A DNA stretch of 64,000 nt, taken from the NCBI GenBank assembly GCA_965214295.1, contig OZ243944.1, positions 1,653,395 to 1,717,394 on the forward strand, written 5' to 3'. Below are positions 6,027 to 60,995 of this stretch, one piece after another; the first letter of the stretch is position 1, and the number at the start of each line of letters is the position of its first letter. The position numbers and the translations under genes are program-made. The stretch comes from Chloroflexota bacterium. Its GTDB lineage: Bacteria; Chloroflexota; UBA11872; UBA12225; JAJDUF01. The notes beneath the pieces are model-generated. The model worked only from the letters and a program-made list of their open reading frames with translations, searched no databases and was not told the origin of the DNA.

Positions 6027-6372
6027 GGGCGGCGGTCGGTCGTGGGGGGTGCGCGGGAAAGGTGCTGGAGGGAGAAGCCCGTACACGCGGTGGAGCAAGA
6101 CCGCGGGCGGGGCGGTACCTGGATGGCAGGATGCACTTGGTGACCTGAAGCAGGATGGTCCGGATGGAAGGATGGGCAGGATGGATTCCCGCTTTCGCGG
6201 GAATGACGGGACGGGGGGCGGGAATGACGATACAGTGGAGCGAGATAGCGGGAATGACGGTCGAGACGATGGGAGTGCGGGTAGGTCAGGGTGCGGGGAT
6301 TGGCAGGGACGCGGGGCAAGCCCCCCTGGCACAACCGGTACACGCCGGCCGGCGAGGGCGCGGTGGCGATAG

Positions 6373-6840
6373 GGGTGGCACTCAGACAGTGCTGACCCGG
6401 CGCCCTGGCCGTAGGGGCCAGGGGTACGTCAGCACCCGGTGCCGGCGAGGCGGCACTCAGGCGGCCATGCCCGGCTGCACGTTGCGCGGTGGGAAATCGG
6501 CCGTGACCCGGCACCCAAGGGTGCCGGGCGCCGGACCAGTGGTAGTCCACCGCCCGCGGCGCGGCGGGGGGTCGCTCATGACCCGGTGCGCGCAAGGCGG
6601 CACTCAGACGGTCGTGGCCTGGCACTCCCGCCGTGATGGCGAGGGGGCGGCCCTGACCCGGTGCCCTCGGGGTGGCACTCAGACAGTCCTGACCCGGCGC
6701 CCTGGCCGTGGGGGCCAGGGGTACGTCAGGACCCGGTGCCCTCGGGGCGGCACTCAGGCGGCCATGCCTCGCCGCGCGCGGTGCGGCGAGGGGTCGTTGA
6801 TGACCCGGTGCCCTCGGCTGGGTGGCTCCGCCACCGCTGT
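6373..6840. repeat. intergenic tandem/direct repeat block: two ~98-bp direct repeats (6373-6470 and 6676-6773, ~95% identical) embedded in ~8 copies of a shorter GACCCGGTGCC..GGCACTCAG hairpin unit
   Basis: direct reading of sequence; internal perfect hairpin CCCTGGCCgtaggGGCCAGGG; no coding potential (only low-complexity P/A/R/G ORFs on both strands). Confidence 0.7.
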
Positions 6841-7250: not shown

Positions 7251-7646
7251 TCAACACCCGCAGTTGATCTCGGTGCCGTCCTGCGCCTTCTCGCCGGCGG
7301 TGGCGTAGCCGTCTCGCTTCCACCAGTCTAGCCCGCCGATCAGCTCACGCACTCGAAAGCCCGGCGTCAGCAGCTTCAGTGCCGTTTTTGTCGAGGCATT
7401 GCAGCCGATGCCGTCGCAGTAGCAGACGTAGAGCTTCGATTTGTCGAGCGACTCGGTGGAATTGAAGCAAATCTCCTTGTGGGGAAGGTTGAGTGCTCCT
7501 GGGATATGCTCTTGGGCATAGGCATTGGCAGAGCGTCCATCAACGATGATGATGGGTTCGTTCTTGCCCAAAGCCTCGTAGAGGTCCCACGAATCCATTT
7601 CGTAAGCGAGCTTGCGCTGGTAGTGGTTCAGCTGCTCGATGCTCAC
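7251..7646 (-). CDS. rhodanese-domain sulfurtransferase with Cys-rich C-terminal tail
   Basis: rhodanese fold sequence (IIIVDGRSANAYAQEHIPGALNLP, CYCDGIGC active-site loop); gene body is low-GC relative to flanks. Confidence 0.7.
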   Translation of the reverse strand: MSIEQLNHYQRKLAYEMDSWDLYEALGKNEPIIIVDGRSANAYAQEHIPGALNLPHKEICFNSTESLDKSKLYVCYCDGIGCNASTKTALKLLTPGFRVRELIGGLDWWKRDGYATAGEKAQDGTEINCGC

Positions 7647-7907
7647 GGTGTTTTTCCTTCATCAACGTTTTGAGTTGTCGAAACCGCGGCCGGCACCGCG
7701 CTGCACACTCGCGTCTGCCGGTCCAGAAAGGGTGTGCGGGGGAGGCTATCAAGCGATCTTGCTGCGATTCTACCGTAACGGAGGTGCTGTGGCGGCGTCC
7801 CTGCCAGCAAAGGGTACAATGGCTGCCCGCATAGAACCGTCGGTTCAAGCGTGCTCGATTGGCGGCCAGGCGCGAGGCCAGTGCATCGCTGGCAAGGAAG
7901 GATGCTC

Positions 7908-8869: not shown

Positions 8870-9922
8870 CTAGACGAGGTGTGGAACGACGCCGAGACCC
8901 GGACGGTCCGGCGGGGTGAGCCGGCCCTGCTCGTGGGTAGCGCCGCTGAACGGGTCGGCCGCGAGGAGCAAGTGACCGTCGAGGTCGGCATAGTCCAGCC
9001 ACGGCAGCAGGTGGGTGGCGGCGGTGATCGCCAAAGAGCTTTCCACCATGCAGCCGACCATCACCTGTAGCCCGTGCGCTCGCGCGACCTCGACGAGGCG
9101 TCGGGCGGGGCGCAGACCGCCGCACTTCATCAGCTTGATGTTGATGCCGTCGCAGGCGTGAGCAATGCGGGGTATGTCTGCCGCCACAATACAGCTCTCG
9201 TCGGCGATCAGCGGCAGCGGCAGTTGGGCATACACGTGGGCCATCCCCACAAGGTCGCTCGCCGCCACCGGTTGCTCCAGTAGCTCGACGCCGGCCGCAA
9301 CGAGGTCAGGGCCGATCTGTAGGGCCTCTTTCGGCGACCAAGCGGCGTTGGCATCCACCATGAGCCGCGCGCTCGTCGCCTCCCGCACGGCGGCCAGAAT
9401 AGCCCGATCCTGGGCCAGATCACCGCTGCCGAGCTTGATCTTGAGCAGCGGAAACCCCGCCGCGGCAGCGGCCTTGGCTCGCTGCGCGACAATAGCCGGT
9501 TCGGCCATGCCGATAGTGAAAGAGGTCAGCGGGCCGGCGTTACGGTCCAGTCCCCACCAGCGCCACAGGGGCAACCCGGTAAGCTGCCCGGCCAGATCGT
9601 GCAGCGCCATGTCTATGGCCGCGCGAGCGGCGGCGTTGTGCCCTAGCGCCCGCGCCAGCCGCGCCAAGATCGCCTCCAGGGCGAGCGGGTCATCGCCGAG
9701 GAGCGGCGCGTAGGCATCCAGCGCAGCCCGGACAGTGGCGACGTTCTCGCCGTAATAGGCGTTCGGCGCCGCCTCGCCCAGCCCGACCAGCCGGCGCCCG
9801 TCGGGCGCTTCCCACGTCAAGCGCACCAGGACGTTCTCGGCGACGGCCCTCGTACCACGCGCAATCGTGAACGGCACGGCCAGGGGCAGCGCGAGCGGCT
9901 CGTGCTCCAGCTCGATACGCAT
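8870..9922 (-). CDS. dipeptide epimerase (L-Ala-D/L-Glu epimerase-like, enolase superfamily)
   Basis: AIDMALHDLAGQ, KIKLG, MVDANAAW, ESCIV motifs of MR/MLE-type dipeptide epimerases; translationally coupled to upstream epimerase gene (3-bp gap, RBS GGAGGAGG). Confidence 0.75.
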   Translation of the reverse strand: MRIELEHEPLALPLAVPFTIARGTRAVAENVLVRLTWEAPDGRRLVGLGEAAPNAYYGENVATVRAALDAYAPLLGDDPLALEAILARLARALGHNAAARAAIDMALHDLAGQLTGLPLWRWWGLDRNAGPLTSFTIGMAEPAIVAQRAKAAAAAGFPLLKIKLGSGDLAQDRAILAAVREATSARLMVDANAAWSPKEALQIGPDLVAAGVELLEQPVAASDLVGMAHVYAQLPLPLIADESCIVAADIPRIAHACDGINIKLMKCGGLRPARRLVEVARAHGLQVMVGCMVESSLAITAATHLLPWLDYADLDGHLLLAADPFSGATHEQGRLTPPDRPGLGVVPHLV

Positions 9923-9925
9923 GCT

Positions 9926-10882
9926 TCAGGCCTCCTCCGGCGGTTCCCGGCCCTCTGCCCAGACGAGGGCGCGGTGGACCCCCTCCCGCAGGCGCACCCG
10001 TGGCTCGTATCCGAGTTGCTGCCTAGCGCGAGTGATGTCGGCGACGTAGTAGGTCACTTCGCCGGGACGGGAGGCCTCGATCTGCATGCGTGGCTCCTGC
10101 TCTAGGACGGTGCCAATGAGTTTCGCCAGCTCCGTGAGCCGATTGCCTTCGCCGTAAGCGAGGTTGAACGTCTCCCCGGTGAGCGTACCGCCAACGAGCC
10201 GTTCGATGCCGCGCCAGAGGCCGTCAACGGCGTCGTCCACATAGGTGAAATCCAGCAGCTTCTCCGCGCCGTACACGGTGATCGGCTCGCCGCGCCCGAT
10301 GGCACGGGCGAAGATCCACAAAACCCGATCCAAACGGTGCAGATCGTTGTCGTACCGGCCGTAGACGTTGCTGAACCGGAAGACGAGATACGGTAGCCCG
10401 TAGCAACTCCGGTAGGCCGCCGCCAACGCTTCACTGGCCAGCTTGGCCGCGGCGTAGGGGCTAGGCGAGGCACCGAATACGGCCGCCGCCTCCGGCACGG
10501 GGCCGCGGTCTCGTGGCTGTTGGCCATAGACCTCCCGCGAGCTGGCCAGGACAATGGGCGTATTCGTAACGCGGGCCAACTCCAGCGCATTCGTCACCAT
10601 CAGGTGATTCTCCAGCGCGCCCAGGGGCCGCTCGACCAGGGCATGGACCTTGGCGTGGGCGGCCAAGTGGACAATCACGTCGCCGGGCGGTAGCGCCACC
10701 TCGCCGAGGCGCCAGCCCCGGATGGGATGCGACACGGCGAGGTCCATCAGGATTGTCTCGAAGCGGTCCGTCCAGGAATTGGGGCGCCGGTCAAGCCCCA
10801 CGACCTCGTGGCCGTCAGCAAGACAGCGCAGGGCGAGATTGGTACCGATCTGCCCGCTCGATCCGGTGATGAGGAGACGCAT
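9926..10882 (-). CDS. NAD-dependent epimerase/dehydratase (SDR-extended family)
   Basis: MRLLITGSSGQIG Rossmann start, YAAAK catalytic motif; RBS GGGAG 10 nt upstream of ATG 10882. Confidence 0.8.
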   Translation of the reverse strand: MRLLITGSSGQIGTNLALRCLADGHEVVGLDRRPNSWTDRFETILMDLAVSHPIRGWRLGEVALPPGDVIVHLAAHAKVHALVERPLGALENHLMVTNALELARVTNTPIVLASSREVYGQQPRDRGPVPEAAAVFGASPSPYAAAKLASEALAAAYRSCYGLPYLVFRFSNVYGRYDNDLHRLDRVLWIFARAIGRGEPITVYGAEKLLDFTYVDDAVDGLWRGIERLVGGTLTGETFNLAYGEGNRLTELAKLIGTVLEQEPRMQIEASRPGEVTYYVADITRARQQLGYEPRVRLREGVHRALVWAEGREPPEEA

Positions 10883-11037
10883 CAGCAGGAAACTCCCAGC
10901 CGCGGCGGTCCGCACACCCAGCCGGATTCCCGGGAAATCGGGGATGACGGTGGGATGTCAACAGCGCCTAGTCGTTTCCCACGACGCAGCGGATACCGTC
11001 GCGGTTAGCGTGCGACGCCGCGGGCCTGAGACACGCT

Positions 11038-15139: not shown

Positions 15140-15336
15140 GGGTCTATGCTCCTCTCACCCCTTGCGGCGGCGGGGTGGTGTAAACAAGGGACGCGTGGCG
15201 GGCGCCGGCCGTGTGGATGCAGCATGATGTGCCCCTCCGCACCGTCCGCGTCATACCACCGCCACAATCGTTATGGGGTAGACTGAACTGCTACACCTTA
15301 TAGTACCCACTGGACCGAGGAGGCCGCTCGATCACT

Positions 15337-17448
15337 ATGCTCCCGACGACACGCACTCTGTCCCCTCTGCGCCGCATCGCCAAGTCGCTGATACTGACGC
15401 TCTGTGTGCTCGGCCTGACGGCAGCGGCCGTGTTGGCGGCGCCAGCGCGCCAAGCCGCGTCCGACGAGGCCATTCCCGATGGCTGGCACTATCGCCAGGC
15501 GTCCGGCACGGCCGACGGTCGCGGGTTTGATCTGCGCGACCTCCCGCATACGCCGGTGGGACCGGTGTCGTTCTGGACGCACGCCGAGAACATGGGCGGG
15601 GTTGAGATCCTCGGCTACCCGGCCAGTCGTGCCTTCGTCGGGCGCGACGGCTGTGTGTACCAGGTCCTACAGCGCGTCACCTTGCAAGCCTGCCAGGGAC
15701 ACGGTATCCGCTTCGCCAACACGTTCCAGATTCTCGAGGAGGCCGTTCAGGACACCTTCCTCGATTCGGTCCGGCAGATTCCCAGGGGACGTGCCGACGG
15801 CGCTCGCTCATTCGATGAGGCGGTCGCTGTCCGCCTGGGCTGGTTGTGGGATGATGCCATCAGAGCGGCGTTCTACAATCCGCCCCATGGCGTGGCGCCT
15901 TCGGATCCTTGGACACCCCACGATGCGATCAACCTCTACGGTCTGCCGATGTCCATACCGGAAGACTACGGTCCGTTCGTCTCTCAGCGGTTCCAGCGCA
16001 TTGCCTTCCAGCGTTGGAAGGTGGACCACCCGGCGGGCATCTTCGCCGCGGGCAGTGTAGTGCCGGTGCTCGGCGGTGATCTATTGAAGGAAACGGGAGT
16101 GCTCAGTGGCGAGGTGACGACGCCGCACGCAGCCGGCGCCTCGCTGATCGCGGCCTTGCCGTCCGTGCCGAGCTTCCCACCCGTCCCCGGCAAAGCGCCG
16201 CCGCCGCTGCCGCCACCACCACCGCCTCCGAAGCCGATTCCTACCCCGGAGCCACGACCCGTCGCGCCCCCGACGCCGGTGGCTACCCAAGCGCCACAGG
16301 CCACTGCGGCCCCAATTCCACCGACGGCCACGCCCATTCCGCCGACGGCTACGCCCGTACCGCCGACCGCCACGCCGCGGCCCTTGCGGCCCTTGCCGGC
16401 GGGCCGGCCCTTCCGGTTGGAATATGGCTTCCAGGCCCATCTGCTCGACACCCGCTTCGGCCGGCGTGCGAACGCCATTCGGCTGACGCAGGAGGCCGGC
16501 TTTACCTGGATCAAGCAGCAGGTCGTCTGGAGCCAGATCGAGAAGCAACCCGGTATCTATGATCCGCAGGAGATGAGCTACCTGGACGGATCGGTCAACG
16601 ACTCCGCCGCGGCTGGCCTCAAGGTACTGTTGAGCATCGTGAAGTCCCCCGATTTCTACGCTGTGACCGGGGGCCACTCGCCGGCCGATCCGACGAAGCT
16701 CGGCGACTTCTTCCGGTTCCTCGCCAGTCGCTACAAGGGCAAGGTGCAGGCCTTCGAGACCTGGAATGAGCAGAACTTGGCCGGCGAGTGGGGCCAAGGA
16801 CGGCTGTGTGGCAACTTCCCGGCCGAGTTCCTAGCACTACAGAAAGCCGCCTACGAGGGCGTGAAGGCCGGTAATCCCCAGGCCGTCGTCGTCTTCCCGG
16901 CGCTGACGCCGACCGGACACGGTGACTGCAACGCCGCGCTCGACGACGTGGTGTACCTGGATCGGCTCTACCGAGACACCGGTGGGCAGATCAAGAACTA
17001 CTTCGACGTCATGGGCACGCATCCGTCCGGCTACAACAGCCCGCCCGGTGACGGAGTTGGTCGGTCAACGGCGCCCGGTTCCGGCTTCCGCAACCACCCC
17101 AGCTTCTTCTTCCTGCGGTTCACGGAGCTACGGGAGGTGATGCTGAGGCATGGGGACGACAAGCCGATGTGGTTCACCGAGTTTGGCTGGAGCGTGTGCG
17201 ACCCGAACAACCGCGTACCGCACTATGAGTACTGCGGCGACAACAGCGAAGAAGAGCGGGCCAGGTACTTCGAGCAGGCCTTCCAGATGCTCTGGGAGCA
17301 GTACCCCTACGTGCAGGTGGCCATCGTGTGGAATCTCAACTTCCGCGACATTGTGCCCTCGACCGACGAGAAGTACGGCTTTGGCTTGGTCAACAACGAT
17401 GGCAGCACGACCCCGGCCTACGACGTGCTGAAGGCCCAGCTCAAGTAA
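15337..17448 (+). CDS. secreted multidomain protein: unknown N-terminal domain, Pro/Thr-rich linker (IPPTATP x3), C-terminal clan GH-A (GH5-like) glycoside hydrolase domain
   Basis: signal peptide; NEQ (ETWNEQN) acid/base-like and TEFG (WFTEFGW) nucleophile-like motifs; RBS GAGGAGG. Confidence 0.7.
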   Translation: MLPTTRTLSPLRRIAKSLILTLCVLGLTAAAVLAAPARQAASDEAIPDGWHYRQASGTADGRGFDLRDLPHTPVGPVSFWTHAENMGGVEILGYPASRAFVGRDGCVYQVLQRVTLQACQGHGIRFANTFQILEEAVQDTFLDSVRQIPRGRADGARSFDEAVAVRLGWLWDDAIRAAFYNPPHGVAPSDPWTPHDAINLYGLPMSIPEDYGPFVSQRFQRIAFQRWKVDHPAGIFAAGSVVPVLGGDLLKETGVLSGEVTTPHAAGASLIAALPSVPSFPPVPGKAPPPLPPPPPPPKPIPTPEPRPVAPPTPVATQAPQATAAPIPPTATPIPPTATPVPPTATPRPLRPLPAGRPFRLEYGFQAHLLDTRFGRRANAIRLTQEAGFTWIKQQVVWSQIEKQPGIYDPQEMSYLDGSVNDSAAAGLKVLLSIVKSPDFYAVTGGHSPADPTKLGDFFRFLASRYKGKVQAFETWNEQNLAGEWGQGRLCGNFPAEFLALQKAAYEGVKAGNPQAVVVFPALTPTGHGDCNAALDDVVYLDRLYRDTGGQIKNYFDVMGTHPSGYNSPPGDGVGRSTAPGSGFRNHPSFFFLRFTELREVMLRHGDDKPMWFTEFGWSVCDPNNRVPHYEYCGDNSEEERARYFEQAFQMLWEQYPYVQVAIVWNLNFRDIVPSTDEKYGFGLVNNDGSTTPAYDVLKAQLK

Positions 17449-17542
17449 GCGCAGGATTAGGCAACGGCGGGAGGCGCCGGAGGCCGCAGCCCACGGACGG
17501 TTGCAGCCTCCGGCGTCCCCCCGCTCAGGTTTCTACATCATC

Positions 17543-18709
17543 ATGACTATGTTACGTTGGTGGTTAGCGCTCTTGATGCTGGCAGTCGGTATCACCCTCG
17601 CCGGCTGCGACGGTGACGACACGGCGCCGGAGACAGCACCGGTCGCCGCCACGGCCGCCGCGGCGCGCAGTACGTCGGGGCTGCAATACGGTTTCCAGGC
17701 CCATCTGCTCGATACACGCTTTGGCCGCCGCGAGAACTCCATTCGACTGACGCGAGAAGCCGGCTTTACCTGGATCAAGCAGCAGGTCCGCTGGAGTCAG
17801 GTCGAAAAGGAACCGGGAGTCTACGACCCGCAGGAAATGAGCTATCTGGACGGTACGGTGAACGACGCTCACGCGGCGGGACTGAACGTGCTGCTCAGTA
17901 TCGTCAGCTCTCCCGACTTCTACGCCGTACCGAACGGTCACTCACCCGCCGATCCGACGAAGCTCGGCGACTTCCTGCGCTTCCTCGCAGCGCGCTACGT
18001 CGGGAAAGTGCAAGCATTCGAGACCTGGAATGAGCAGAACTTGGCCGGCGAGTGGGGCCAAGGACGGCTGTGTGGCAACTTCCCGGCCGAGTTCCTAGCA
18101 CTACAGAAAGCCGCCTACGAGGGCGTGAAGGCCGGTAATCCCCAGGCCGTCGTCGTCTTCCCGGCGCTGACGCCGACCGGACACGGGGACTGCAACGCCG
18201 CGCTCGACGACGTGGTGTACCTGGATCGGCTCTATCGAGAGACCGGTGGAGAGATCAGGCACTACTTCGACGTCATGGGCGCTCATCCCTCCGGGTACAA
18301 CAGCCCGCCCGGCGACGGAGTTGGTCGGTCAACGGCGCCCGGTTCCGGCTTCCGCAACCACCCCAGCTTCTTCTTCCTGCGGTTCACGGAGCTACGGGAG
18401 GTGATGCTGAGGCATGGGGACGACAAGCCGATGTGGTTCACCGAGTTCGGCTGGAGCGTCTGCCCGAACGTCGTCGTGCCTGGGTATGAGTATTGCCGGG
18501 ACAACAGCGAAGAAGAGCGGGCCAGGTACTTCGAGCAGGCCTTCCAGATGCTCTGGGAGCAGTACCCCTACGTGCAGGTGGTCATCGTGTGGAATCTCAA
18601 CTTCCGCTCCATCGTCCCGGAGACGGATGAAAAGTGGGGCTTTGGGCTAGTCAACGAAGACTGGTCCACAACGCCGACCTATGAAGTGCTGAGGGGACTA
18701 CCCAAATAG
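17543..18709 (+). CDS. lipoprotein, GH5-like glycoside hydrolase (paralog of C-terminal domain of upstream gene)
   Basis: lipobox LAGC; same NEQ/TEFG motifs; 100-220-bp tracts identical to 15337..17448. Confidence 0.7.
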   Translation: MTMLRWWLALLMLAVGITLAGCDGDDTAPETAPVAATAAAARSTSGLQYGFQAHLLDTRFGRRENSIRLTREAGFTWIKQQVRWSQVEKEPGVYDPQEMSYLDGTVNDAHAAGLNVLLSIVSSPDFYAVPNGHSPADPTKLGDFLRFLAARYVGKVQAFETWNEQNLAGEWGQGRLCGNFPAEFLALQKAAYEGVKAGNPQAVVVFPALTPTGHGDCNAALDDVVYLDRLYRETGGEIRHYFDVMGAHPSGYNSPPGDGVGRSTAPGSGFRNHPSFFFLRFTELREVMLRHGDDKPMWFTEFGWSVCPNVVVPGYEYCRDNSEEERARYFEQAFQMLWEQYPYVQVVIVWNLNFRSIVPETDEKWGFGLVNEDWSTTPTYEVLRGLPK

Positions 18710-19264: not shown

Positions 19265-19440
19265 CAGGGCCTTTCCATTGCCACCACATTGTCACCACTT
19301 CAACAGGCTCAGTGCCGGCTCTGAGCGGAGCGCAGGGTCGCTCCGCCGCGGCTGAGATTCTTCGCTCCGCTCAGAATGGCAGTGGAAAGGCCGCTCAGAA
19401 GGACCGGTTTGGCGGCGACTTTGGAAAGGCCCTCCGTTTC
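19265..19440. repeat. ~165-bp structured intergenic repeat element, copy A (copy B at 60830..60995, ~90% identical)
   Basis: direct comparison of the two loci; contains 13-bp inverted repeat GAGCGGAGCGCAG...CTGCGCTCCGCTC and CTCAGtgccggctCTGAG hairpin. Confidence 0.6.
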
Positions 19441-19700
19441 CCGGTCATTTCCGCGGAGACGGGAATCTATGCTTGTCGCTGGATACCGGGCCCCCTATGC
19501 TCCCCCGCTGTGCAGGGGGACGTGGATTCCCCGCGGGTGCGGGAATGACGGGCCGCAGCGGCCGGCCGCAGCGCAGACGGAGCGTAGGCCAGGCTACCGA
19601 ACCGATCGGGCCGAACAGGCTATGATAAGCAGGGTAAGGCTGGCGCTCGGCCGGTGCCGGCACGAGGACGTCATAGCCGCACTGAGGCGAGGAGGAAACT

Positions 19701-20861
19701 GTGAACCGTAGACAATTCGGCGAGACGACCGTGCGCTTGCTGGCGCTGGCCGGCGCATTCGCGCTGGCAGCCTGCGGGACTGACGAGGTGGGCGGACCAC
19801 CAACGGCGAGCGGCGGGACCGTTTCGGAGAGCACGAGTGCGCCGGCCAGTGCCGCCCCGACGGCGGCCGCGGCCCAACCGACGACGGAGCCGCTCGCCTT
19901 GGCGGATTTTGACCCTAGCGAGATCCTCACGGTCCTGCCGCGCGACGCGATCCCGGCGATTTTCGATCCGGAATTCATGACGGTTGACGAGATTCAGCAG
20001 CGTCAGAGCCTCCAGGACGAGGAGCCGGTGCTGGGCTTCGAGCACAATGGCGAAGCGCATGCCTACTCTGTCCTACAGCTGGACCGCCACGAGATCGTCA
20101 ACGATATCGTCGGCGGCCGGGCTATCGCGGCGACGTGGTGACCGCTCTGCTTCACGGGCATCGTGTATGCTCGCGACATCAACGGTGATCGCTACGAGTT
20201 TGGCGTCTCCGGCAAGCTCTTCCGCAATGTCCTGATTATGTATGACCGGCAGACCAAGTCCCTGTGGAGCCAACTGCTCGGGGCAGCAGTTGACGGGCCG
20301 CTGAAGGGCACCAGACTGGAAATGCTGCCGGCCATCTTTACCACTTGGGGAGTGTGGCGGCGTGAGCATCCTGATGGCATGGTGCTCAAGAAGCTGGAGC
20401 CGAGCCGCCAGACGTATGGCGGGTACTGGCAGTCGCAGGATGCGGGAATCTTGGGCGAGAAGTACCAAGACGAGCGCCTGAAGACCAAGCAGTTCGTGCT
20501 CGGCGTGCGGATCAACGACCAGCCCAAGGCATACCCGTACCTGCGCCTCAGCGAGGAGCCGGTCGTGAATGAGACGTTTGCCGAGACGCCGCTGGTGGTG
20601 GTGTTCGATGATCGGTCGGCCAGCGGGGCGATCTTTGCGCGCACAGTGGCGGGCAAGACCCTCACCTTTAGGTTGGCCGAGCGGACCGAGACGGCACCGC
20701 TCATCACCGATCAAGAGACGGGCACGAAGTGGCATGGCCTCTCCGGTGTGGCCCTCGATGGTCAGCTTGCCGGCCAACGGCTCACCGCGATTCCGGCCAC
20801 GCCCTCCTTCTGGTTTGGCTGGAAGGACCATTTCCCCAACACGGCGGTCTACGGCGAGTAG
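19701..20861 (+). CDS. DUF3179-family lipoprotein with in-frame TGA (20139-20141), the position predicted for the first Cys of a conserved CxxC motif (family motif recalled from memory): candidate selenoprotein (U-P-L-C) or nonsense-disrupted gene
   Basis: GTG start with RBS GGAGGA; lipobox LAAC; ORFs 19701..20141 and 20163..20861 are in the same frame separated by a single TGA; read-through gives ...GGRAIAATW-[TGA]-PLCFTGIVYARD... Confidence 0.5.
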
Positions 20862-21320
20862 AATCGTCCTGCTCCCACTGGGGAGACTTTTTTTAGCCAC
20901 AGAGAACACAGAGTAAGGGTGTCCCCCGGCGGAGCGGGACACTGGCCCCGCTAGGGTCCCTCCGCTTCGCAGGGGGACATAGATTCCCACGTGCGCGGGA
21001 ATGACGAGTGGCGAGGTGCGCCTTTCAGGAGTTGTGTCGTAGCGTGCGGCGAGGATCGCAACGATGGTCGCACGTTGATTATCGCGGGCTGTTGTGCGAT
21101 AATCTCGGCACAGGCAAATACGCTGGCCTGAATCAGCAAGCTGGGAGCCAGCACTGTAGCAATTACCACAGATGAACCGGCGGCATCTTTGTCGGTGAAA
21201 CCCAGTCCCTTGAGCGGCCCGGTGACAGGAAGGGCAGACCGGCATGGACCAAGAAGTTGTCGGTCATATGCCGCAGTGAGATTGTGTGGCCGGCAGTTGC
21301 CTAAGACGAGGCTTGGGAAT

Positions 21321-22169
21321 ATGACTATCTGTCTGGGTGTCCTATGTGCCGATGTGGGCAAGGGATCACAAGCAGTAGTTGTTGCTTCAGACCGCATGGT
21401 AACTTGGAGCGGCCTTGCCGAGTTCGAGCACGGAACCCCAAAGGTTGAAAGCGTAAGTGATCGAGTCGTAGGTTTGATTGCAGGGGATGCCCTTCGCGGT
21501 GCGGAGTTGGTCCGCAGATTGCGGATTGCTGTTCCAGACACATCCCCCTTGGTAGAGAAGGTGGCTAGTGCTGCTGGCGATGTATATGCCGAATGACGCC
21601 GGGAACAACTTGAAAGTGATTTGTTTACGCCTCGTGGTGTCTCCATGAGGGACTTTTATGCAGGATTACAGCAACAGTGGATGCCAAACATAGCACTAGC
21701 AATTGATGAGCGGGTTCAGGATTTCGACTATGGTGTAGAGTTGATGATTGCAGGTGTTGATAGTGCGGGAGCGCACCTTCACATGGTATCCAATCATGGG
21801 GGGAACTATCGTGATTATAGAAAGATCGGCTTTGCGGCAACGGGGAGTGGTGGTATACACGCTATCCAGTCCATTATTGGCTTTGGGCATGATCCTACTT
21901 GTACGCTTCACGAGACATTATTCCGGGTATATGTCTCAAAGCGCCGAGCAGAGGTCGCACCTGGAGTGGGACGGGATACCGATTTGACTGTCATCAGGGC
22001 AGGGGACGGATGCCGCATTAATCTGGACGAAGAAGCACTTGAAGCTCTTGAAAAGCTGCGTGTTGAACACCAAGGGCCAGCAGTCGAGGAAGTAGAAGCG
22101 CGAGTAGCTAAGTTGGCACTGTTCCCGGATGAGACTGATGATGGCAAACAACTTGCAGCTAACGACTAG
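21321..22169 (+). pseudogene. proteasome-beta/HslV/Anbu-like Ntn-hydrolase with in-frame TGA at 21594-21596 (aligns to conserved Trp of HslV DWRTDR)
   Basis: N-terminus MTICLGV...AVVVASDRMVT matches proteasome beta TTIVGV..GVVLAADRR; GSGG (ATGSGGIHA) motif; both halves in same frame; low-GC region. Confidence 0.5.
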
Positions 22170-22467
22170 CGCCGCTCCACCTGAGCATGGCGCCACACGA
22201 CCACGAGTAGTCTACGCTGAACCTTGGCGTTGGCAAATCAAGCAGTGGCAGAACGAGAACAAACTGTTCAAGCTACGTATGGCCATCGCCAGGCGACTGG
22301 GGCGTACCAATCTTCATATCCCGGAACCTGTAGAGCCTCCTGATCCAGGCGAGCGCAAGGACCGGATACAGCCGGCAGGTGGCGAGTAACGCGAGGGCAG
22401 CAGCCGGCGGGCTGCAATCCGCTACACTCGACCTACCGACAAGACCAAGCGCGTTGGAGGTCAGTGC

Positions 22468-23459: not shown

Positions 23460-23519
23460 AATGTGCATGAATGCGGAGAGTGCTAAGATATAGCATCCCC
23501 TGTCCCCATTCCGGATGAG

Positions 23520-25262
23520 TTGGTGATGGAGTTTTTGTACAGTCCTGACGTGTACTCCATGCCCGCCGTCGCATTCATGGTGGCAACCGTAGCACTCTCT
23601 CTGCTACTGCAACTGCGCCGTCGCTACCGTGATAACCTCGCGCTTTATAAGCGAGATAAGAAAGTAGCACTTGTTCTACTGGTGCAAATGCACCGTTACG
23701 ATGTGCTGCTGGTCGGGTTGCTATGCCTGGCCATCCTGGTGTATAGCACGGGTAACCTCTCGCTACAGCCGGCCTACCCTTATGGTGATGGAATACAAAA
23801 CTTGGAGCTGGGAATCCGACTGGCGCAGGAGGGGCGCTACAGTATCTGGGACGTCACCGGGTTTCACGAGCGCGAGCCGTTCGTGCCATTCCTGATTGCA
23901 GCCATCGACCTGACGCGGCGAGTACTCGGGCACGAGCCGGTGCTGCTGGTTTGTGTAGATCCCGACGTGGCAGCCGCACCAGCGTGTCCCCCGACATATC
24001 TGACGTATGCGCCGTACAAAGTCCTGAACGTCGTGTTCCTGCTACTTGCCGGGGTGAGTGCTTTTTTTATTGTGCTGTGGTTCACCAGGGTAAAGTTGCT
24101 GGCGTACGCCGCGTTGCTCCTCACGACGCAGAGCAGGGAGCTATTGTCAAGCGCTGACAGTTTCTACACCGAAGTACCCGCCGCCGGCCTCATGGTGGCA
24201 ACCAGCGTATTTGCTCTGCTGACGATAACGCGGCGCCGCCCGATATACAGCGTGTTGCTGGGGTTGGTGCTCGCCGCGCTCGTGTTGACCAAGACCATTT
24301 TCGCCTATCTGTGGATCTTTATCATCATCACCTTCGTGTTGTTGGACCTATCGAAGAAAAAGCTCGGCCGGTCAACCTTGACTCTCGTCGGGTTTTTCCT
24401 TGTCGCGTACTTCATCCCCCTCGGCGCTTGGATGACGCGCAACTACGCAACGTCCGGAGACTTTTCATTGGTGGCTGAACGACCAGCGGCCGAAGAGTGG
24501 GGTATACGCGCCGCGTATAACGAGATGCGCGACGATGAGTTTTTCGCGGGCTTCTTGTTGTTCTTTCCCGTAACACGTTCGAATATTAACAACTTCTTCC
24601 CAAAAGAATCCTACGAGCGTCTCACGTCGTTTTATTTCGAAGATCTAGGCCGACGGGGTAAATTCTATAGTAGAGAAAGAGAGTTGAATGACGGAAGAGA
24701 CAAGCATATGGAGAAGGTGCCCCCAGGAATGACGTTCAGGCAGTGGAGTATAGACACGCTCGCAAGCGAAATGAGGGCAGAAATGCTTGCCGACCCCTGG
24801 CAGCATTTCAGGGTATCACTGCTGTTGGGCTGGCGCGGTGTGTTTAGGTGTTGTTTTTTTGGGCTTGGGTATGACTTCATGCGAAGTGACCTGCTGCTCG
24901 CCGACACATGGGGATTCACAGACTGGCCATCCTGGAGTTGGAGTCCGTTCGGCCCGGTTTGGAACAGCCTCGTCAGGATCACTACGTTTCTTGCGCTCAT
25001 TGTTGTGCCGTTATGGTTCTGGTTTTCTCAGCGGCGGTTCGAGACGGTGCTCATTGTGCTGCCGGCACTCTATGCACATGGCCTGTATGCCGTGGCGTCA
25101 TCCTTCATTCCCCGCTATGGATTTCCCCTGATCCCACTGCGGATAGTGGCGGCGATGTTGCTCGTGTTCCTGTTGGTGTCCGCGCTGTACCGGCTAGGGA
25201 TGAAGTCGGTTGAGTTCGTTACCGAATACCGGAAGAGATGCGGCAAAAGTAGATGGCAGTAG
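23520..25262 (+). CDS. polytopic membrane protein, possibly GT-C-fold glycosyltransferase (ArnT/PMT-like)
   Basis: many TM helices; ~50% GC vs ~67% flanks; function call from general architecture only. Confidence 0.55.
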   Translation: MVMEFLYSPDVYSMPAVAFMVATVALSLLLQLRRRYRDNLALYKRDKKVALVLLVQMHRYDVLLVGLLCLAILVYSTGNLSLQPAYPYGDGIQNLELGIRLAQEGRYSIWDVTGFHEREPFVPFLIAAIDLTRRVLGHEPVLLVCVDPDVAAAPACPPTYLTYAPYKVLNVVFLLLAGVSAFFIVLWFTRVKLLAYAALLLTTQSRELLSSADSFYTEVPAAGLMVATSVFALLTITRRRPIYSVLLGLVLAALVLTKTIFAYLWIFIIITFVLLDLSKKKLGRSTLTLVGFFLVAYFIPLGAWMTRNYATSGDFSLVAERPAAEEWGIRAAYNEMRDDEFFAGFLLFFPVTRSNINNFFPKESYERLTSFYFEDLGRRGKFYSRERELNDGRDKHMEKVPPGMTFRQWSIDTLASEMRAEMLADPWQHFRVSLLLGWRGVFRCCFFGLGYDFMRSDLLLADTWGFTDWPSWSWSPFGPVWNSLVRITTFLALIVVPLWFWFSQRRFETVLIVLPALYAHGLYAVASSFIPRYGFPLIPLRIVAAMLLVFLLVSALYRLGMKSVEFVTEYRKRCGKSRWQ

Positions 25263-25404
25263 ATTTTGCGGACTTGATGCCTAGCATGAGGGATAGCGCG
25301 CGCGAAAAGGAGAAGAGAGGGGGAAGAGGGCCTTTTGACCAGTGCGAGGCTTGGAACTCTCGCAGATGTAGAGGCGGGAAAAGATGATAGCAGCTTTGGG
25401 TCTA

Positions 25405-25432
25405 CCTCCGTCCGCATCAGCCGCTAGTCCGG
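25405..25432. repeat. 28-bp direct repeat, right copy
   Basis: identical to 23432..23459. Confidence 0.65.
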
Positions 25433-45351: not shown

Positions 45352-45384
45352 AGACACACGGGCGTCACAGACGGGACCGCTGCG

Positions 45385-46785
45385 ATGTTATTGACGATTA
45401 CCACAACCTACCAACCTGCCACCGACCTGGGCTTTCTTCTGGCCAAGAATCCGGCCCGGTGTCAATCGTTCTCCTTGTCCTTCGGTCAGGCCCATGTCTT
45501 TTATCCGGTAGCGCACGACCGGGTCTGCACGGCGGCACTGCTCGTTGACCTCGATCCGATCCGTCTCGTGCGGCGGCGACGAAGCCGTCAGAGCCAGGAC
45601 CGCACGCTCGGCCAGTACGTGAACGACCGGCCGTATGTGGCCTCATCTTTTCTGAGCGTGGCGTTGGCCCGCGTGTACAAGTCGGCATTGGGCGGCCAGA
45701 GTAAAGAGCGACCGGCACTTGCGGCTACGGCTATTCCGCTCGCGGTGCAGATCACTGCGGTCCAATGTCGCGATGGTGAGCGCATGCTGCGGGCGCTCTT
45801 CGAGCCGCTCGGCTACAACGTCAGCGCCGAGCGCCAGCCGCTCGATGTAGCCTTTCCGCAGTGGGGAGAGAGCACGTATTGGTCACTCGCTCTCGATGCC
45901 ACCCACCGCCTGCATGACCTCCTCACACACCTGTATGTCTTGCTGCCGGTACTGGACGACGACAAGCATTACTGGGTTGGGAGGGACGAGCTGGAGAAGC
46001 TGCTGGCAAAAGGAGCGGGCTGGCTCTCGACTCACCCGGAACGTGACTTGATCGTTGACCGCTACTTGCGGTACCGGCGCCTGCTCACCCGCGAGGCCCT
46101 CGCCAGACTGGTGGTCGACGACGACATCAATCCCGATGCTACCGAGGAAGCACAGGCCCGCGAAGAGGCGGTGTTGGAGGACAGAATCAGCCTCAGTGAG
46201 CAGCGCATGATGGCCGTGCTGGCTGTGCTCAGGGGAGCCGGCGCTACACGGGTGATCGACCTGGGCTGTGGGGAGGGGAAGTTTCTCCAGGTGCTACTCA
46301 AGAATACGGACTATGAGCAAATCACCGGTATGGATGTGTCCTCCCGGGCCCTAGCGTTAGCAGCGAGACGTTTGCGGCTCGACCGGTTACCGGCGAGACA
46401 ACGCGCGCGCATCGAGCTTTTTCAGGGAGCGCTCACCTACCGGGATCAACGACTCACCGGTTACGATGCCGCCTGTGCGCTGGAGGTTATCGAGCACATC
46501 GAACCATCGCGGCTGGGCGCTTTCGAGCGGGTGCTCTTCGAGTTTACACGGCCGTCAACCGTAGTGATTACCACGCCGAACACAGAGTACAACGTGCGAT
46601 TCGAGGACCTTGCCGCCGGTCGGTTCCGCCACCGCGATCATCGCTTCGAGTGGACCCGCGCGGAGTTCTCACGCTGGGCGCAGCGGGTGGCAGATCGCTC
46701 CGGCTATGCGTTTCGGTTGCTGCCTATCGGTCCAGTTGACCCGGCCGTAGGTCCTCCGACCCAGATGGCGGTATTCTCACGATGA
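45385..46785 (+). CDS. hen1: bacterial Hen1 RNA 3'-terminal 2'-O-methyltransferase
   Basis: N-terminal Pnkp-interacting region and C-terminal SAM MTase (VIDLGCGEGKFL); overlaps pnkp start by 4 bp (ATGA). Confidence 0.8.
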   Translation: MLLTITTTYQPATDLGFLLAKNPARCQSFSLSFGQAHVFYPVAHDRVCTAALLVDLDPIRLVRRRRSRQSQDRTLGQYVNDRPYVASSFLSVALARVYKSALGGQSKERPALAATAIPLAVQITAVQCRDGERMLRALFEPLGYNVSAERQPLDVAFPQWGESTYWSLALDATHRLHDLLTHLYVLLPVLDDDKHYWVGRDELEKLLAKGAGWLSTHPERDLIVDRYLRYRRLLTREALARLVVDDDINPDATEEAQAREEAVLEDRISLSEQRMMAVLAVLRGAGATRVIDLGCGEGKFLQVLLKNTDYEQITGMDVSSRALALAARRLRLDRLPARQRARIELFQGALTYRDQRLTGYDAACALEVIEHIEPSRLGAFERVLFEFTRPSTVVITTPNTEYNVRFEDLAAGRFRHRDHRFEWTRAEFSRWAQRVADRSGYAFRLLPIGPVDPAVGPPTQMAVFSR

Positions 46786-49337
46786 ATATCACTGTCCCGG
46801 CACTGTCGTTGGTGGTCTTGATCGGCCCTTCGGGCAGCGGCAAGTCTACGTTTGCCAGCAAGCATTTCAAGCCCACGGAAGTGCTGTCATCCGACTATTG
46901 CCGCGGCCTCGTGTCCGATGACGAAAACGATCAAGCTGCGACGAAAGATGCCTTCGACGTACTCCACTTCATCGCTCGCAAACGCCTCGCGGCTGGCCGG
47001 CTCACCGTGGTAGATGCTACCAACGTTCAGGCGGAGGCACGCAAGCCGCTGGTGGCGCTGGCACGAGAAGCCCACGTGCTTCCTGTGGCCCTCGTCTTCA
47101 ACCTGCCGGCCAAGCTGTGCCAGGAGCGCAACCGCGACCGGCCCAACCGCGACTTCGGTCCCCACGTGGTTCGGCAGCACAGTCAGCAGCTGAGACGCTC
47201 GCTCCGCGGCCTGCGGCGGGAGGGTTTTCGACACACCGCTATCCTGAGCACGCCGGATATGGTCGCCGCCGCCCGTATCGTGCGGCAGCCTTTGTGGGTC
47301 GACCGGCGGCAGGAGCATGGTCCGTTCGACATCATTGGCGATGTCCACGGCTGCTTCGATGAGCTTGTCGCGTTGCTGGAGCAGCTGGGCTATGACATCG
47401 GCGGCCCGACTGGTCGGCCCACGGTGCGCCACCCGGACGGTAGGCGTGCGGTGTTTGTTGGCGATCTCGTGGATCGAGGCCCTAACTCGCCTGGGGTGCT
47501 CCGGTTGGTCATGGCCATGGTGGCCGACGCGGCAGCGCTGTGTGTGCCGGGCAATCACGACATCAAGCTCATGCGAAAACTCAAGGGGCGCGATGTTCGG
47601 ATCACGCATGGTCTCGCGGAAACGCTGACGCAGCTGGCCGCAGAGCCGGATGACTTCCGACGGAGCGTGATGGAGTTTCTCGACGGGCTGGTGAGCCATT
47701 ACGTGCTCGACGATGGGCGGTTGGTCGTTGCTCATGCTGGCCTGAAGGAGGAGCTGCAAGGGCGCGCCTCGGGCCAGGTACGGGAGTTTGCGCTCTATGG
47801 CGAAACCACTGGCGAGACCGATGAGTTCGGATTGCCGGTTCGTCACAACTGGGCTGACGACTACCGAGGATCGGCCACTGTCGTCTACGGACACACACCG
47901 GTACCAGCCGCAGAGTGGCGCAACCGGACTGTCTGTATTGACACCGGTTGCGTGTTTGGTGGGAAGCTGACGGCTTTACGCTATCCGGAAAAGGAGCTGG
48001 TGCATGTCCAGGCGCGCCGCACCTACTATGACCCGGTGCGTCCTCTACTACCACCAAGCCAAGAGGCGCCGGCTGTATCGCGCCGTCCCCACGATGACAT
48101 ACTGGATATCAACGATGTCTTGGGTAAGCGTGTCATTACCACACGCATTCACCGCAACATCACTATTCGCGAGGAGAATGCTTTGGCGGCTCTCGAGGTC
48201 ATGAGCCGATTTGCGGTGGATCCGCGGTGGCTTATCTATCTACCACCGACTATGGCTCCTCCGGATACCTGCAAAGATGGCGAGTACCTTGAGCATCCAC
48301 GCGACGCCTTCGCTTACTTCCGAGGGCAGGGAGTGGCTCAGGTTATCTGCGAGGAAAAGCACATGGGCTCACGGGCTATCGTCGTTCTCTGCCGCGATCA
48401 GGAGGCGGCCCAGCGCCGATTCCAGGCGGACAATGGCCGGCTCGGTCTCGTCTATACGCGCACGGGACGCCCCTTCTTTTCCGATACCAAGATGGAGGGC
48501 ACGCTGCTCGCGCGTATGTCTGCCGCCTTGGCGCAGGTGGACTTCTGGGATCGCTTTGAGACGGACTGGCTCTGCCTCGATGCCGAGCTGCTGCCGTGGT
48601 CGGCGAAGGCTCAGGGGTTGCTACAGGATCAGTACGCAGCTACGGCGGCCGCAGCCAGCACTACGCTCGATGCCGCCGTCTCCTTGCTGAAGAAGGCCGC
48701 GGGCCGCGAAGAAGAGCGCGCGGCGTTGCTCACTCGCTACCGGAAGCGCCAGGAAATGGCGAGCCGGTTTCGCGCGGCCTATCGTCGCTACTGCTGGCCG
48801 GTCAGGAGTGTGGCCGACCTGAAGCTGGCGCCCTTTCACCTGCTGGCGACGGAAGGGCGGACATACACGGACAAGGACCACACCTGGCACATGGAGATGG
48901 TCGCGGCCCTCTGCCAGGCTGATGGAGCGATCTTCGCTGCTACTCCCTACAAAACTGTCGACCTGACCGACCCTGACAGCGAGACAAGAGGGATCAGCTG
49001 GTGGAAAGAGCTGACTGCCGCTGGCGGCGAGGGGATCGTTGTGAAGCCGCTCCGGTGGATCGTGAGAGGGAGTCGAGGCCTCGTTCAGCCGGCCATGAAG
49101 TGCCGGGGACGCGAGTACTTGCGATTGATCTATGGCCCGGAGTATACGGCTCCTGAGCACCTGGAGCGGCTCCGGTCCCGCAAGGTCTCCGTGAAGCGCT
49201 CGTTAGCCCTGCGAGAGTTTGCGCTGGGTGTCGAGGCGCTCCATCGGTTTACGGAGGAAGAGCCGCTGTATCGGGTGCATGAATGCATCTTCGGCGTGCT
49301 GGCCCTGGAGAGCGAGCCGGTCGACCCTAGGCTCTAG
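46782..49337 (+). CDS. pnkp: polynucleotide kinase-phosphatase (kinase / metallophosphoesterase / ligase-like domains)
   Basis: P-loop GPSGSGKST; calcineurin-type GDVHGC..GDLVDRGP..GNHD; C-terminal adenylyltransferase-like EEKHMGSR. Confidence 0.85.
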   Translation: MNITVPALSLVVLIGPSGSGKSTFASKHFKPTEVLSSDYCRGLVSDDENDQAATKDAFDVLHFIARKRLAAGRLTVVDATNVQAEARKPLVALAREAHVLPVALVFNLPAKLCQERNRDRPNRDFGPHVVRQHSQQLRRSLRGLRREGFRHTAILSTPDMVAAARIVRQPLWVDRRQEHGPFDIIGDVHGCFDELVALLEQLGYDIGGPTGRPTVRHPDGRRAVFVGDLVDRGPNSPGVLRLVMAMVADAAALCVPGNHDIKLMRKLKGRDVRITHGLAETLTQLAAEPDDFRRSVMEFLDGLVSHYVLDDGRLVVAHAGLKEELQGRASGQVREFALYGETTGETDEFGLPVRHNWADDYRGSATVVYGHTPVPAAEWRNRTVCIDTGCVFGGKLTALRYPEKELVHVQARRTYYDPVRPLLPPSQEAPAVSRRPHDDILDINDVLGKRVITTRIHRNITIREENALAALEVMSRFAVDPRWLIYLPPTMAPPDTCKDGEYLEHPRDAFAYFRGQGVAQVICEEKHMGSRAIVVLCRDQEAAQRRFQADNGRLGLVYTRTGRPFFSDTKMEGTLLARMSAALAQVDFWDRFETDWLCLDAELLPWSAKAQGLLQDQYAATAAAASTTLDAAVSLLKKAAGREEERAALLTRYRKRQEMASRFRAAYRRYCWPVRSVADLKLAPFHLLATEGRTYTDKDHTWHMEMVAALCQADGAIFAATPYKTVDLTDPDSETRGISWWKELTAAGGEGIVVKPLRWIVRGSRGLVQPAMKCRGREYLRLIYGPEYTAPEHLERLRSRKVSVKRSLALREFALGVEALHRFTEEEPLYRVHECIFGVLALESEPVDPRL

Positions 49338-57298: not shown

Positions 57299-57481
57299 GC
57301 GCCGGGTGCCCTGGGTCGCACCTAGGCACACGTCATGGCGGCGGAAGCCGCCATCCAGGGCCATTCCTGGCCCCCATACTCCCCCCGCTCCGCAGGGGGA
57401 CAGCGTATTCCCTCCCCTGTGCGTCAGCACGGGGGGAGGGCAAGGGTGGGGGCCACAGCTGCAACTGGCTAGGAGGACACC

Positions 57482-58231
57482 ATGACCGCTATTGACTTTG
57501 CCAGCTCGTATATGACCTGGTTTGGCCCTGGAAATCATGCGCGGATCCAGCTCGATGCGGCCTGCACCATCGTTGACGAGCAAGCGGGGGCGGAGGAGAT
57601 CTTCTACCTGATTGCGCCTTGTCGCTCCGAGCGTTGCTACATGGATGATCCGCTGTTCACGATGCCCAACTATGAGTTCTGCGGTATCTGGTCCCAGGAT
57701 GAATTCCTCCTTATTCGGACGCATTGGGTGAGCGAACGGGACAATCGCCAATACGGTGTCATCCGTGAGCACTGGGATGCCGTGCAGCTGGACATTCGCC
57801 GCTTTCCGCAGGCGGAGCAGCTCCCGGATCGAGCCGCTATCGTCACGGCGACGCTCGCCAACCGCCCCCTCATTGCCCGCACCGAGCTGCACGATGAGGC
57901 GGGCCGGCAGCGGGCGGTGCTGGAGTATCCGGTGCGGACGATGAATGTGCTGCCGGGGCCGGCGGCGCGCGTGCCCCGCAATCCACCACAGTTCCAGGTG
58001 GACACCGGGCCGCTGATCGTCCCGGACTTCGCATCGACCGCGGACCATCAGATCGAGCGCTTCGACATGGGATACCTTGTCTACCAGGAGTTCGATCAGG
58101 CAGAGTTCATCTTGCGCCGGCCGGTGCCGGTCCCGTCGGCAGAGCAGCCGGCGACCGAGACAACGGACTACTCGGCCGTCCGAATAATCCCGGCCCGCAA
58201 CACCATTCTCGCGCCGCCGGCCCCGGCGTGA
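57482..58231 (+). CDS. hypothetical protein (249 aa)
   Basis: strong RBS AGGAGG 6 nt upstream; no recognisable domain. Confidence 0.6.
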   Translation: MTAIDFASSYMTWFGPGNHARIQLDAACTIVDEQAGAEEIFYLIAPCRSERCYMDDPLFTMPNYEFCGIWSQDEFLLIRTHWVSERDNRQYGVIREHWDAVQLDIRRFPQAEQLPDRAAIVTATLANRPLIARTELHDEAGRQRAVLEYPVRTMNVLPGPAARVPRNPPQFQVDTGPLIVPDFASTADHQIERFDMGYLVYQEFDQAEFILRRPVPVPSAEQPATETTDYSAVRIIPARNTILAPPAPA

Positions 58232-58297
58232 TGGGGGCGAGCCGTTGGCCGAAATTGGTATCCTGCCTGGCGCTGCCGAGCTTGTGTACGAAAGGCG

Positions 58298-60728: not shown

Positions 60729-60829
60729 GCGTACACGTCTCTCCGGCGCGTGATGGGGGTGCCGCGCTGTCGAGCGAGGCCACAGCGAGGATACCAACGG
60801 AGCGTCGGTCGCTCGCCGGGATCGTGCCA

Positions 60830-60995
60830 GGGCCTTTCCATTGTCACCACTTCGACAGGCTCAGTGCCGGCTCTGAGCGGAGCGCAGGGTCTCTCCCGTG
60901 GCCGAGATTCTGCGCTCCGCTCGGAATGACAGTGGACAGGCCGCTCAGAATGACCGGTTTTGGCGGCGACTTTGGAAAGTCCCTCGGATTGCGCG
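60830..60995. repeat. ~165-bp structured intergenic repeat element, copy B
   Basis: ~90% identical to 19265..19440. Confidence 0.6.

Follow-up and report, generated by a model that had tools for sequence, protein, structure and literature searches.

Introduction

Bacterial proteins carrying the DUF3179 domain are already listed as a selenoprotein family with the motif UxxC/T (Zhang et al. 2022, PMC9312934; 2026 AEM review, PMC13188914), an entry which both sources credit to Zhang & Gladyshev 2007 (PMC1976440). A model of the bacterial selenocysteine insertion sequence (bSECIS) is available as well, according to which the loop comprises 3-9 nt and the stem 4-16 bp, a G is located within the first two loop positions, the distance from the UGA to the loop is 16-37 nt, and the minimum free energy (MFE) is -7.5 kcal/mol or lower (PMC13188914, section 5). 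Here, we describe a DUF3179 gene from an uncultured Chloroflexota bacterium, which is located in a stretch of 64,000 nucleotides (assembly GCA_965214295.1, contig OZ243944.1, positions 1,653,395 to 1,717,394 of the forward strand). This whole stretch is referred to as the window, and positions are counted from its first letter. The gene is interrupted by one in-frame TGA, and comparison with homologous genes indicates that this codon is very probably read as selenocysteine (Sec). The selenoprotein status of DUF3179 is already published, and the gene in the window is therefore a correct rediscovery, by which no new class is opened.

A single in-frame TGA at a conserved cysteine position

The gene and the signals associated with it are the following.

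19701 to 20861, plus strand: complete DUF3179 gene, probably encoding a selenoprotein; 386 codons and a stop, GTG start, TAG stop, Sec as codon 147.
19690 to 19695, plus strand: AGGAGG, Shine-Dalgarno-like, 5 nt before the GTG start, read from the sequence.
19701 to 19775, plus strand: predicted lipoprotein signal peptide MNRRQFGETTVRLLALAGAFALAAC, residues 1-25, with the lipobox L-A-A-C and Cys25, by sequence pattern.
20139 to 20141, plus strand: in-frame TGA, the probable Sec codon U147, at the first position of U-P-L-C.
20155 to 20173, plus strand: bSECIS-like hairpin with the stem 20155-20161 (CGGGCAU)/20167-20173 (AUGCUCG) and the apical loop 20162-20166 (CGUGU).
20872 to 20895, plus strand: terminator-like hairpin CTCCCACTGGGGAG followed by a T-run, 11 nt past the stop, found by pattern scan.

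The open reading frames (ORFs) 19701-20141 and 20163-20861 share one frame, and its sole break is the TGA at 20139-20141; reading through this codon yields ...AIAATW-U-PLCFTGIVYAR.... With Cys placed at the TGA, the product matches PF11376 (DUF3179) over the full profile (E-value 5e-86; 289.1 bits at a gathering score of 27 bits; residues 81-381 on positions 1-292 of 292), and no NCBIfam model matches it. An earlier sequence-only reading of this DNA had joined the two ORFs into one gene for an exported DUF3179 lipoprotein with an L-A-A-C lipobox, had placed the TGA at the first Cys of a conserved CxxC motif, and had put the gene forward as a selenoprotein candidate. The frame, the domain and the position of the codon were confirmed, the lipoprotein signal is predicted here as well, and the candidacy is supported by the conserved TGA, the aligned Cys and a covarying hairpin restricted to TGA forms. 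The motif given in that reading, (V/T)YCPLC, proved only partly appropriate: VTYCPLC is real in one subfamily, but the clade of the window has (V/A)TW-U-PLC.

Homologous DNA was collected from a 4.4-Mb contig (L001) and from 80 loci of a scan with one genome per species; numbers preceded by L denote such loci. At the position in question, 82 of the 84 gene copies from the window, L001 and the species-representative genomes carry TGA rather than a Cys codon, the remaining two having TGC or TGT, which settles the codon comparison that had been proposed as a check. As these copies share the same TGA, chance is excluded as its origin. Their products are 39-92% identical to that of the window, and their hosts belong to the Chloroflexota (Anaerolineae and Dehalococcoidia, including one SAR202 metagenome-assembled genome, MAG), Nitrospinota, Tectomicrobia, Poribacteria and Binatia. 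Of 81 full-length homologues that lack the stop, 79 have Cys and two have Ser at the aligned position, and all 81 have the Cys at the fourth position. When metagenome loci were added, the set comprised 107 distinct TGA sequences, and 37 genes with a Cys codon aligned at the same position. Protein searches returned many database homologues (51-93% identity) of only about 231-239 amino acids which start just past the codon (MYAREI...); thus, the same apparent truncation occurs in many organisms.

Both parts of the gene are under selection. The nearest relative, L002, is syntenic with the window and shows 92% protein and 88% nucleotide identity. Between the two, 56 synonymous and 13 non-synonymous codon differences were counted downstream of the TGA, and 27 synonymous and five non-synonymous ones in the 90 codons upstream of it. 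This synonymous excess in both parts shows that both halves are kept by purifying selection. Since other genes in the window use TGA as their normal stop, the genetic code is not globally reassigned.

Some further variation was observed within the family. Tandem DUF3179 genes are present in some genomes: L007 and L059 have the in-frame TGA in each of their two copies, and the second DUF3179 gene of L021 and L023 is likewise called as two split ORFs. Three TGA forms, the second copy of L102 and the genes of L159 and L163, have U-P-L-A and hence no resolving Cys. With an extra TAA at an invariant Glu, the gene of L080 is probably a true pseudogene.

A covarying hairpin accompanies the TGA

Directly downstream of the TGA, the transcript may form a hairpin with a 7-bp stem and a 5-nt loop. 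It starts 13 nt after the TGA, so that the loop starts 20 nt after the UGA, and two optional lower pairs may join 20152-20153 with 20175-20176. The MFE of the 47-nt segment starting at the UGA is -11.8 kcal/mol. In loop size, stem length, position of the loop G, spacing and MFE, the hairpin falls within the published bSECIS model. RNAalifold predicted the same seven pairs on an alignment of 65 distinct TGA-type sequences, in which the loop consensus is N-G-[U/G]-N-U; the G at loop position 2 is invariant and is followed by U or G. Compensatory changes occur at five of the seven stem pairs, the covariation score is 0.275 compared to 0.112 in shuffled alignments (none of 500 shuffles scored as high), and 87% of the cells are paired, a share that drops to 28-54% if the 3' arm is shifted by 1-3 columns. 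The clearest covarying pair links the free third base of a Gly/Ala codon to the first base of an Ala/Ser/Gly/Asp codon and is C-G in 42 sequences, A-U in 13, U-A in eight, G-U or U-G in two and unpaired in none.

Genes with a Cys codon served as a control, for which 80 metagenome loci were added. The 107 distinct TGA-type sequences form on average 6.64 of the seven pairs (mean MFE -9.3), and 80 of them form all seven, whereas the 37 Cys-codon sequences form 3.35 on average (mean MFE -2.6). Since pairing is high in the TGA forms and low in the Cys forms, the hairpin travels with the UGA and not with the protein sequence. One Cys form that is close to Sec forms, L133, has kept six of the seven pairs and looks like a recent Sec-to-Cys conversion. 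A SECIS-like element, covarying and confined to TGA forms, is thus present, but it is not the hairpin pointed out in the sequence-only reading. The hairpin named in that reading, CACGggcauCGUG (20153-20165, CACG-ggcau-CGUG), does exist; its 4-bp stem was rejected as the SECIS, as it overlaps the 7-bp stem 20155-20161/20167-20173 but is not conserved, and the covarying stem is preferred. No Rfam family matched within the window at gathering thresholds.

Selenophosphate synthetase genes next to DUF3179 in relatives

Using tblastn, selD was detected in the flanks of three related Chloroflexota loci, L042, L014 and L058. Together with two further assemblies of the L042 lineage, the positions are as follows.

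L042, 5773 to 6795, minus strand: selD near the TGA-type DUF3179 gene, with an in-frame TGA at the Cys17 position.
L166 and L169, 9890 to 10921, plus strand: selD near the TGA-type DUF3179 gene, with an in-frame TGA at the Cys17 position.
L014, 6411 to 7055, minus strand: selD, a few kb from the TGA-type DUF3179 gene.
L058, 6846 to 6986, minus strand: selD, a few kb from the TGA-type DUF3179 gene.

In L042, L166 and L169, which are assemblies of one lineage, selD is located 1.8-2.5 kb from the split DUF3179 gene, and its own TGA aligns with Cys17 of the E. coli protein (SCAG*ASKF), which is the classic Sec-containing form of SelD. A tRNA-Sec has been reported for Chloroflexi (PMC5389517), with an 8/4 form described for the group. 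Taken together, the Sec-type selD beside the gene in relatives and the reported tRNA-Sec show that the Sec trait exists in the lineage. Sec decoding is therefore established for relatives carrying the DUF3179 TGA gene, a statement that covers these relatives and not the genome of the window; the uncultured lineage represented by the window very probably decodes UGA as Sec.

Predicted export and fold

Residues 1-25 of the DUF3179 protein end in L22-A-A-C25, preceded by a positively charged n-region and a hydrophobic h-region, and fit the lipobox pattern [LVI][ASTVI][GAS]C. The product is thus predicted from its sequence to be an extracytoplasmic lipoprotein. Similarly, a lipobox is present in 40 of 70 homologous N-termini, most of the others having a hydrophobic signal or anchor segment, and the full-length homologues have such a segment at the N-terminus, in both cases as judged by eye. 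A twin-arginine motif occurs in only seven of the 70 N-termini. The window protein itself carries N-R-R-Q-F, which renders its own export route ambiguous. That the signals are mostly of the general secretory (Sec pathway) type and only rarely twin-arginine points to export of the unfolded protein, which argues against an iron-sulfur cofactor.

Comparison of the family with itself by hhalign aligned its N- and C-terminal halves with 34% identity (probability 99.9%, E-value 2e-35). Two repeats may accordingly be placed on the gene.

20004 to 20387, plus strand: repeat 1 of a putative duplicated Rieske-like beta domain, residues about 102-229, carrying (D-R-)H-E-I-V-N-D and U-P-L-C.
20472 to 20852, plus strand: repeat 2, residues about 258-384, with no His and no U/CxxC, from hhalign; the boundaries are approximate.

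Within the family, (H)-E-x-x-N-D and U/C-P-L-C are confined to the first half. An AlphaFold2 model was calculated for a 50%-identical Cys homologue with an alignment of 81 sequences and is confident, with a predicted local distance difference test score (pLDDT) of 91.9 and a predicted template modelling score (pTM) of 0.87. From this model we infer that the DUF3179 protein arose by tandem duplication of a beta domain which is Rieske-like and has the Rieske beta-sandwich fold. The spacing S/D-x-H-x16-(U/C)-P-L-C resembles, by eye, the Rieske arrangement C-x-H-x17-C-P-L-H of E. coli HcaC; accordingly, Sec would be placed where Rieske proteins have the third cluster ligand, in the C-P-x-H loop.

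We also considered, and rejected, a [2Fe-2S] cluster protein. The ligands are incomplete, as the Rieske set C-x-H...C-x-x-H is replaced by S/D/N/E-x-(H/R/V)...(U/C)-P-L-C, and most members have secretory-type export, so that the dependence on twin-arginine translocation (Tat) expected of extracytoplasmic Rieske proteins is not a property of the family.

Discussion

The evidence argues strongly that the DUF3179 gene of the window is a genuine selenoprotein gene and that UGA 147 is read as Sec. This reading, to which we assign high confidence on comparative sequence grounds, is based on the conserved TGA, the alignment of the codon with Cys, the purifying selection on both halves and the covarying, TGA-specific hairpin. 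UGA 147 and the hairpin are conserved together across many genomes, as expected for a Sec codon and its SECIS. By analogy to established bacterial Sec insertion, the hairpin would recruit SelB carrying Sec-tRNA(Sec), and the ribosome would insert Sec instead of terminating. Following export by the secretory pathway and lipidation of Cys25, as suggested by the sequence pattern, the protein would reside on the outer face of the cytoplasmic membrane, where the first of the two Rieske-like domains may hold U147-P-L-C150 in a loop matching the Rieske 'C-P-x-H', as in the model of the homologue.

Several observations weigh against this interpretation or parts of it. selA, selB and tRNA-Sec were not found in the 64-kb window or in any homologous locus fetched: among the approximately 50 genes of the window there is no tRNA gene (ARAGORN) and no SelA, SelB or SelD domain, tblastn with the E. 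coli SelA, SelB and SelD proteins gave nothing in the window, and all tRNAs that ARAGORN identified on about 83 related loci are ordinary ones, with no tRNA-Sec among them. The window sequence alone folds no better than shuffled sequences (z -0.33); its single-sequence energy is therefore not counted as evidence, and the SECIS assignment rests on the comparative data. Both arms of the hairpin lie within conserved codons, by which the apparent conservation is inflated. With regard to the fold, the equivalence of U-P-L-C and the Rieske C-P-x-H was judged by eye from motif spacing, there is no solved homologue and no sequence relative in the PDB, even by profile search, and the family profile gave no significant hhalign match to E. 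coli HcaC, a real Rieske ferredoxin, so that the link to Rieske proteins is a structural one only. In 12 Sec forms, Arg or Val stands in place of the His, and U-P-L-A occurs in a few Sec forms; hence, neither a His ligand nor the resolving Cys is universal. Finally, no neighbouring gene is common to more than eight closely related loci among the 82 loci searched, and none is conserved across lineages. In the window, the gene is surrounded by genes for a LuxR-type regulator, GH5-like proteins and sugar-acid metabolism.

As to the role of the Sec residue, it might be speculated that U147 and C150 form a selenylsulfide/selenol-thiol couple and that the protein is an extracytoplasmic thiol/selenol oxidoreductase, a function we consider possible but would stop short of calling probable. 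Alternatively, the gene may encode a true selenoprotein in which U147-x-x-C150, with or without the nearby His, is a metal site, such as that of a chaperone or sensor for Cu or Zn built on a scaffold derived from Rieske proteins. The position in the former metal-cluster loops of a Rieske-like fold would suit such a site, as would the S-x-x-C in two Cys-type homologues and the precedent of UxxC metal-handling families listed as selenoproteins (cation ATPase, CobW-like proteins and MerT; table in PMC9312934); on the other hand, the replacement of the His in Sec forms, the lack of metal-related genes among the neighbours and the export by the secretory pathway, which would require that the metal be acquired outside the cell, speak against it. 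We regard the metal site, the main functional alternative, as somewhat less likely than the redox couple. The rare U-P-L-A and S-P-L-C variants show that neither the redox nor the metal model can be universal.

Among the explanations that dispense with Sec, the one that survives best holds that UGA is recoded to Cys or another standard amino acid by a variant tRNA. Recoding of the Sec codon has been reported in some bacteria, and the Sec machinery was not found within the 64-kb window. Against this, the SECIS-type hairpin fits a SelB-dependent model (PMC13188914), a Sec-type selD adjoins the DUF3179 gene in relatives, and curated lists count the family among the selenoproteins (PMC9312934, PMC13188914); we thus regard a variant tRNA as very unlikely. 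Even less probable are two separate products, a 146-residue lipoprotein ending at the TGA and a 232-residue protein translated from GTG 20163. Gene callers do annotate exactly these two ORFs in many genomes, but in the model the break would cut a single folded beta domain between one of its strands and the conserved loop, the downstream ORF has no signal peptide in an otherwise extracytoplasmic family, the Cys-type homologues are single polypeptides, and the stretch that leads from the TGA to GTG 20163 codes for the conserved P-L-C-F-T-G-I. A pseudogene arising from a single TGC-to-TGA nonsense mutation in a Cys-type gene, the alternative raised in the sequence-only reading, would need just one base change, in a setting where the neighbouring gene does carry a nonsense TGA and the L080 copy an additional TAA, but it is effectively refuted by the identical TGA in 82 of 84 copies from different species, by the 56:13 and 27:5 ratios of synonymous to non-synonymous differences on either side of the codon, and by a covarying hairpin confined to TGA forms.

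Returning to a UGA that is read as Sec, a wider hypothesis might be formulated. DUF3179 might be a degenerate tandem Rieske fold in which the former [2Fe-2S] loops have been turned into an extracytoplasmic selenol/thiol (U-P-L-C) centre, with the Sec form and not the Cys form as the norm in large lineages that are aerobic and marine or sponge-associated; the lineages meant are the Chloroflexota (including the SAR202 MAG), Poribacteria, Nitrospinota, Tectomicrobia and Binatia, some with an adjoining Sec-containing selD. We put this forward as speculation that may well be wrong. If true, a selenium-dependent activity of a new structural type, anchored in the membrane and widely distributed, would exist beyond the classic anaerobic selenoproteomes. 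A more immediate consequence concerns annotation, as the gene in the window, like hundreds of its homologues in public MAGs, is wrongly called as two truncated ORFs, which should be joined into one selenoprotein gene. In addition, DUF3179 gains a SECIS consensus (7-bp stem and N-G-[U/G]-N-U loop, 20 nt after the UGA), a predicted exported, lipid-anchored topology and a modelled tandem Rieske-like fold, and these narrow the experiments for finding its function.

Other features of the window

A second in-frame TGA is present in the gene following DUF3179.

21189 to 22169 (gene about 21321 to 22169): proteasome-beta-like gene (PF00227) with an in-frame TGA at 21594-21596, by comparison with homologues.

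The sequence-only reading had taken this codon as a reason for caution. The TGA is real; however, all of the approximately 120 homologues among the matches listed are full length, and a 94%-identical one has Leu at the codon (YAELRRE). As judged from these homologues, the codon is a nonsense lesion or a sequencing error and not a Sec codon, and since it is unrelated it gives no reason for caution regarding DUF3179. A tblastn search of the proteasome-beta-like gene against plasmids gave no match.

No further Sec candidate emerged in the window when all in-frame TGAs flanked on either side by coding signal were scanned; other same-frame TGA junctions, at 8870-10957 (minus strand) and 57473-59452 (plus strand), were rejected, as they merely separate neighbouring genes. 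A small rhodanese-domain protein (7251-7658, minus strand) ends in ...NCGC followed by TGA, and rhodanese-like proteins are among the listed selenoprotein families; here, the TGA is most likely a plain stop.

The lower-GC segments 20862-22415 (1.55 kb) and 23460-25410 (0.51-0.58, compared to 0.64 for the window) are both missing in the syntenic L002 and look like strain-specific insertions. The former carries the broken proteasome-like gene, the latter encodes a 580-residue multi-pass membrane protein with no Pfam match. Approximately 175 bp directly upstream of the DUF3179 gene (19265-19440) recur 41.5 kb away at 60828-60990 with 87-97% identity. In addition, an intergenic palindrome, GGATTCCCGC-n4-GCGGGAATGACG and variants thereof, is dispersed in both orientations and resembles elements of the repetitive extragenic palindromic (REP) type; copies are located at about 6182, 18804, 19515, 20980, 32490, 39277, 39339, 49378, 51946, 55532, 57325 and 59494, and thus on both sides of the DUF3179 gene.

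Upstream of DUF3179, two adjacent paralogous genes for secreted GH5-like proteins (15304-17448 and 17432-18709) are 78-81% identical over their catalytic parts; the linker region encoded by the first is long, rich in Pro and contains PTATP-type repeats. Within an ORF region without a Pfam match, 75-nt tandem repeats that are 67-81% identical form an array at 6372-6830. Genes for Hen1 (RNA 2'-O-methyltransferase) and Pnkp (kinase-phosphatase-ligase) form a pair at 45352-49337, which we take to be a bacterial RNA-repair pair.

Comparison with known systems

The Rieske [2Fe-2S] ferredoxins and NirD-like small subunits (e.g. PDB 2qpz, 3c0d and 3gce; E. coli HcaC) share about 9% sequence identity with DUF3179. 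In contrast to these, DUF3179 proteins have Ser, Asp, Asn or Glu as ligand 1 and Cys instead of His as ligand 4, their His is not universal, and most members are exported by the secretory pathway rather than by Tat.

With the SECIS of the E. coli fdhF type, the hairpin of the window has in common that a stem-loop within the coding sequence is located just 3' of the UGA at the expected distance, with G-U or G-G in a small apical loop. It differs in that it shows no sequence similarity and has a plain 7-bp stem with no bulged U demonstrated.

The Cys-type DUF3179 proteins (e.g. P0004, P0013 and P0025) are 40-50% identical to the window protein and have the same two-repeat architecture, an N-terminal signal, anchor or lipobox, and the invariant x-P-L-C. 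Their genes have a Cys codon at the position of the UGA, and the hairpin does not follow it (3.35 of 7 pairs, compared to 6.64 of 7 in TGA forms).

Closest is the published DUF3179 selenoprotein family itself, which shares with the window gene the Pfam domain, the Sec position, the U-x-x-C motif and a SECIS-like hairpin directly after the UGA. The window gene, which shows no essential difference from the family, extends it by a member that comes from an uncultured lineage of the Chloroflexota. The published entries are table rows without fold, topology or SECIS consensus. To these entries, the present analysis adds a SECIS consensus that was controlled against Cys forms, a record of how widely the Sec form occurs in Chloroflexota and other phyla, a modelled fold of two Rieske-like domains in tandem, and, for one lineage, the linkage to selD.

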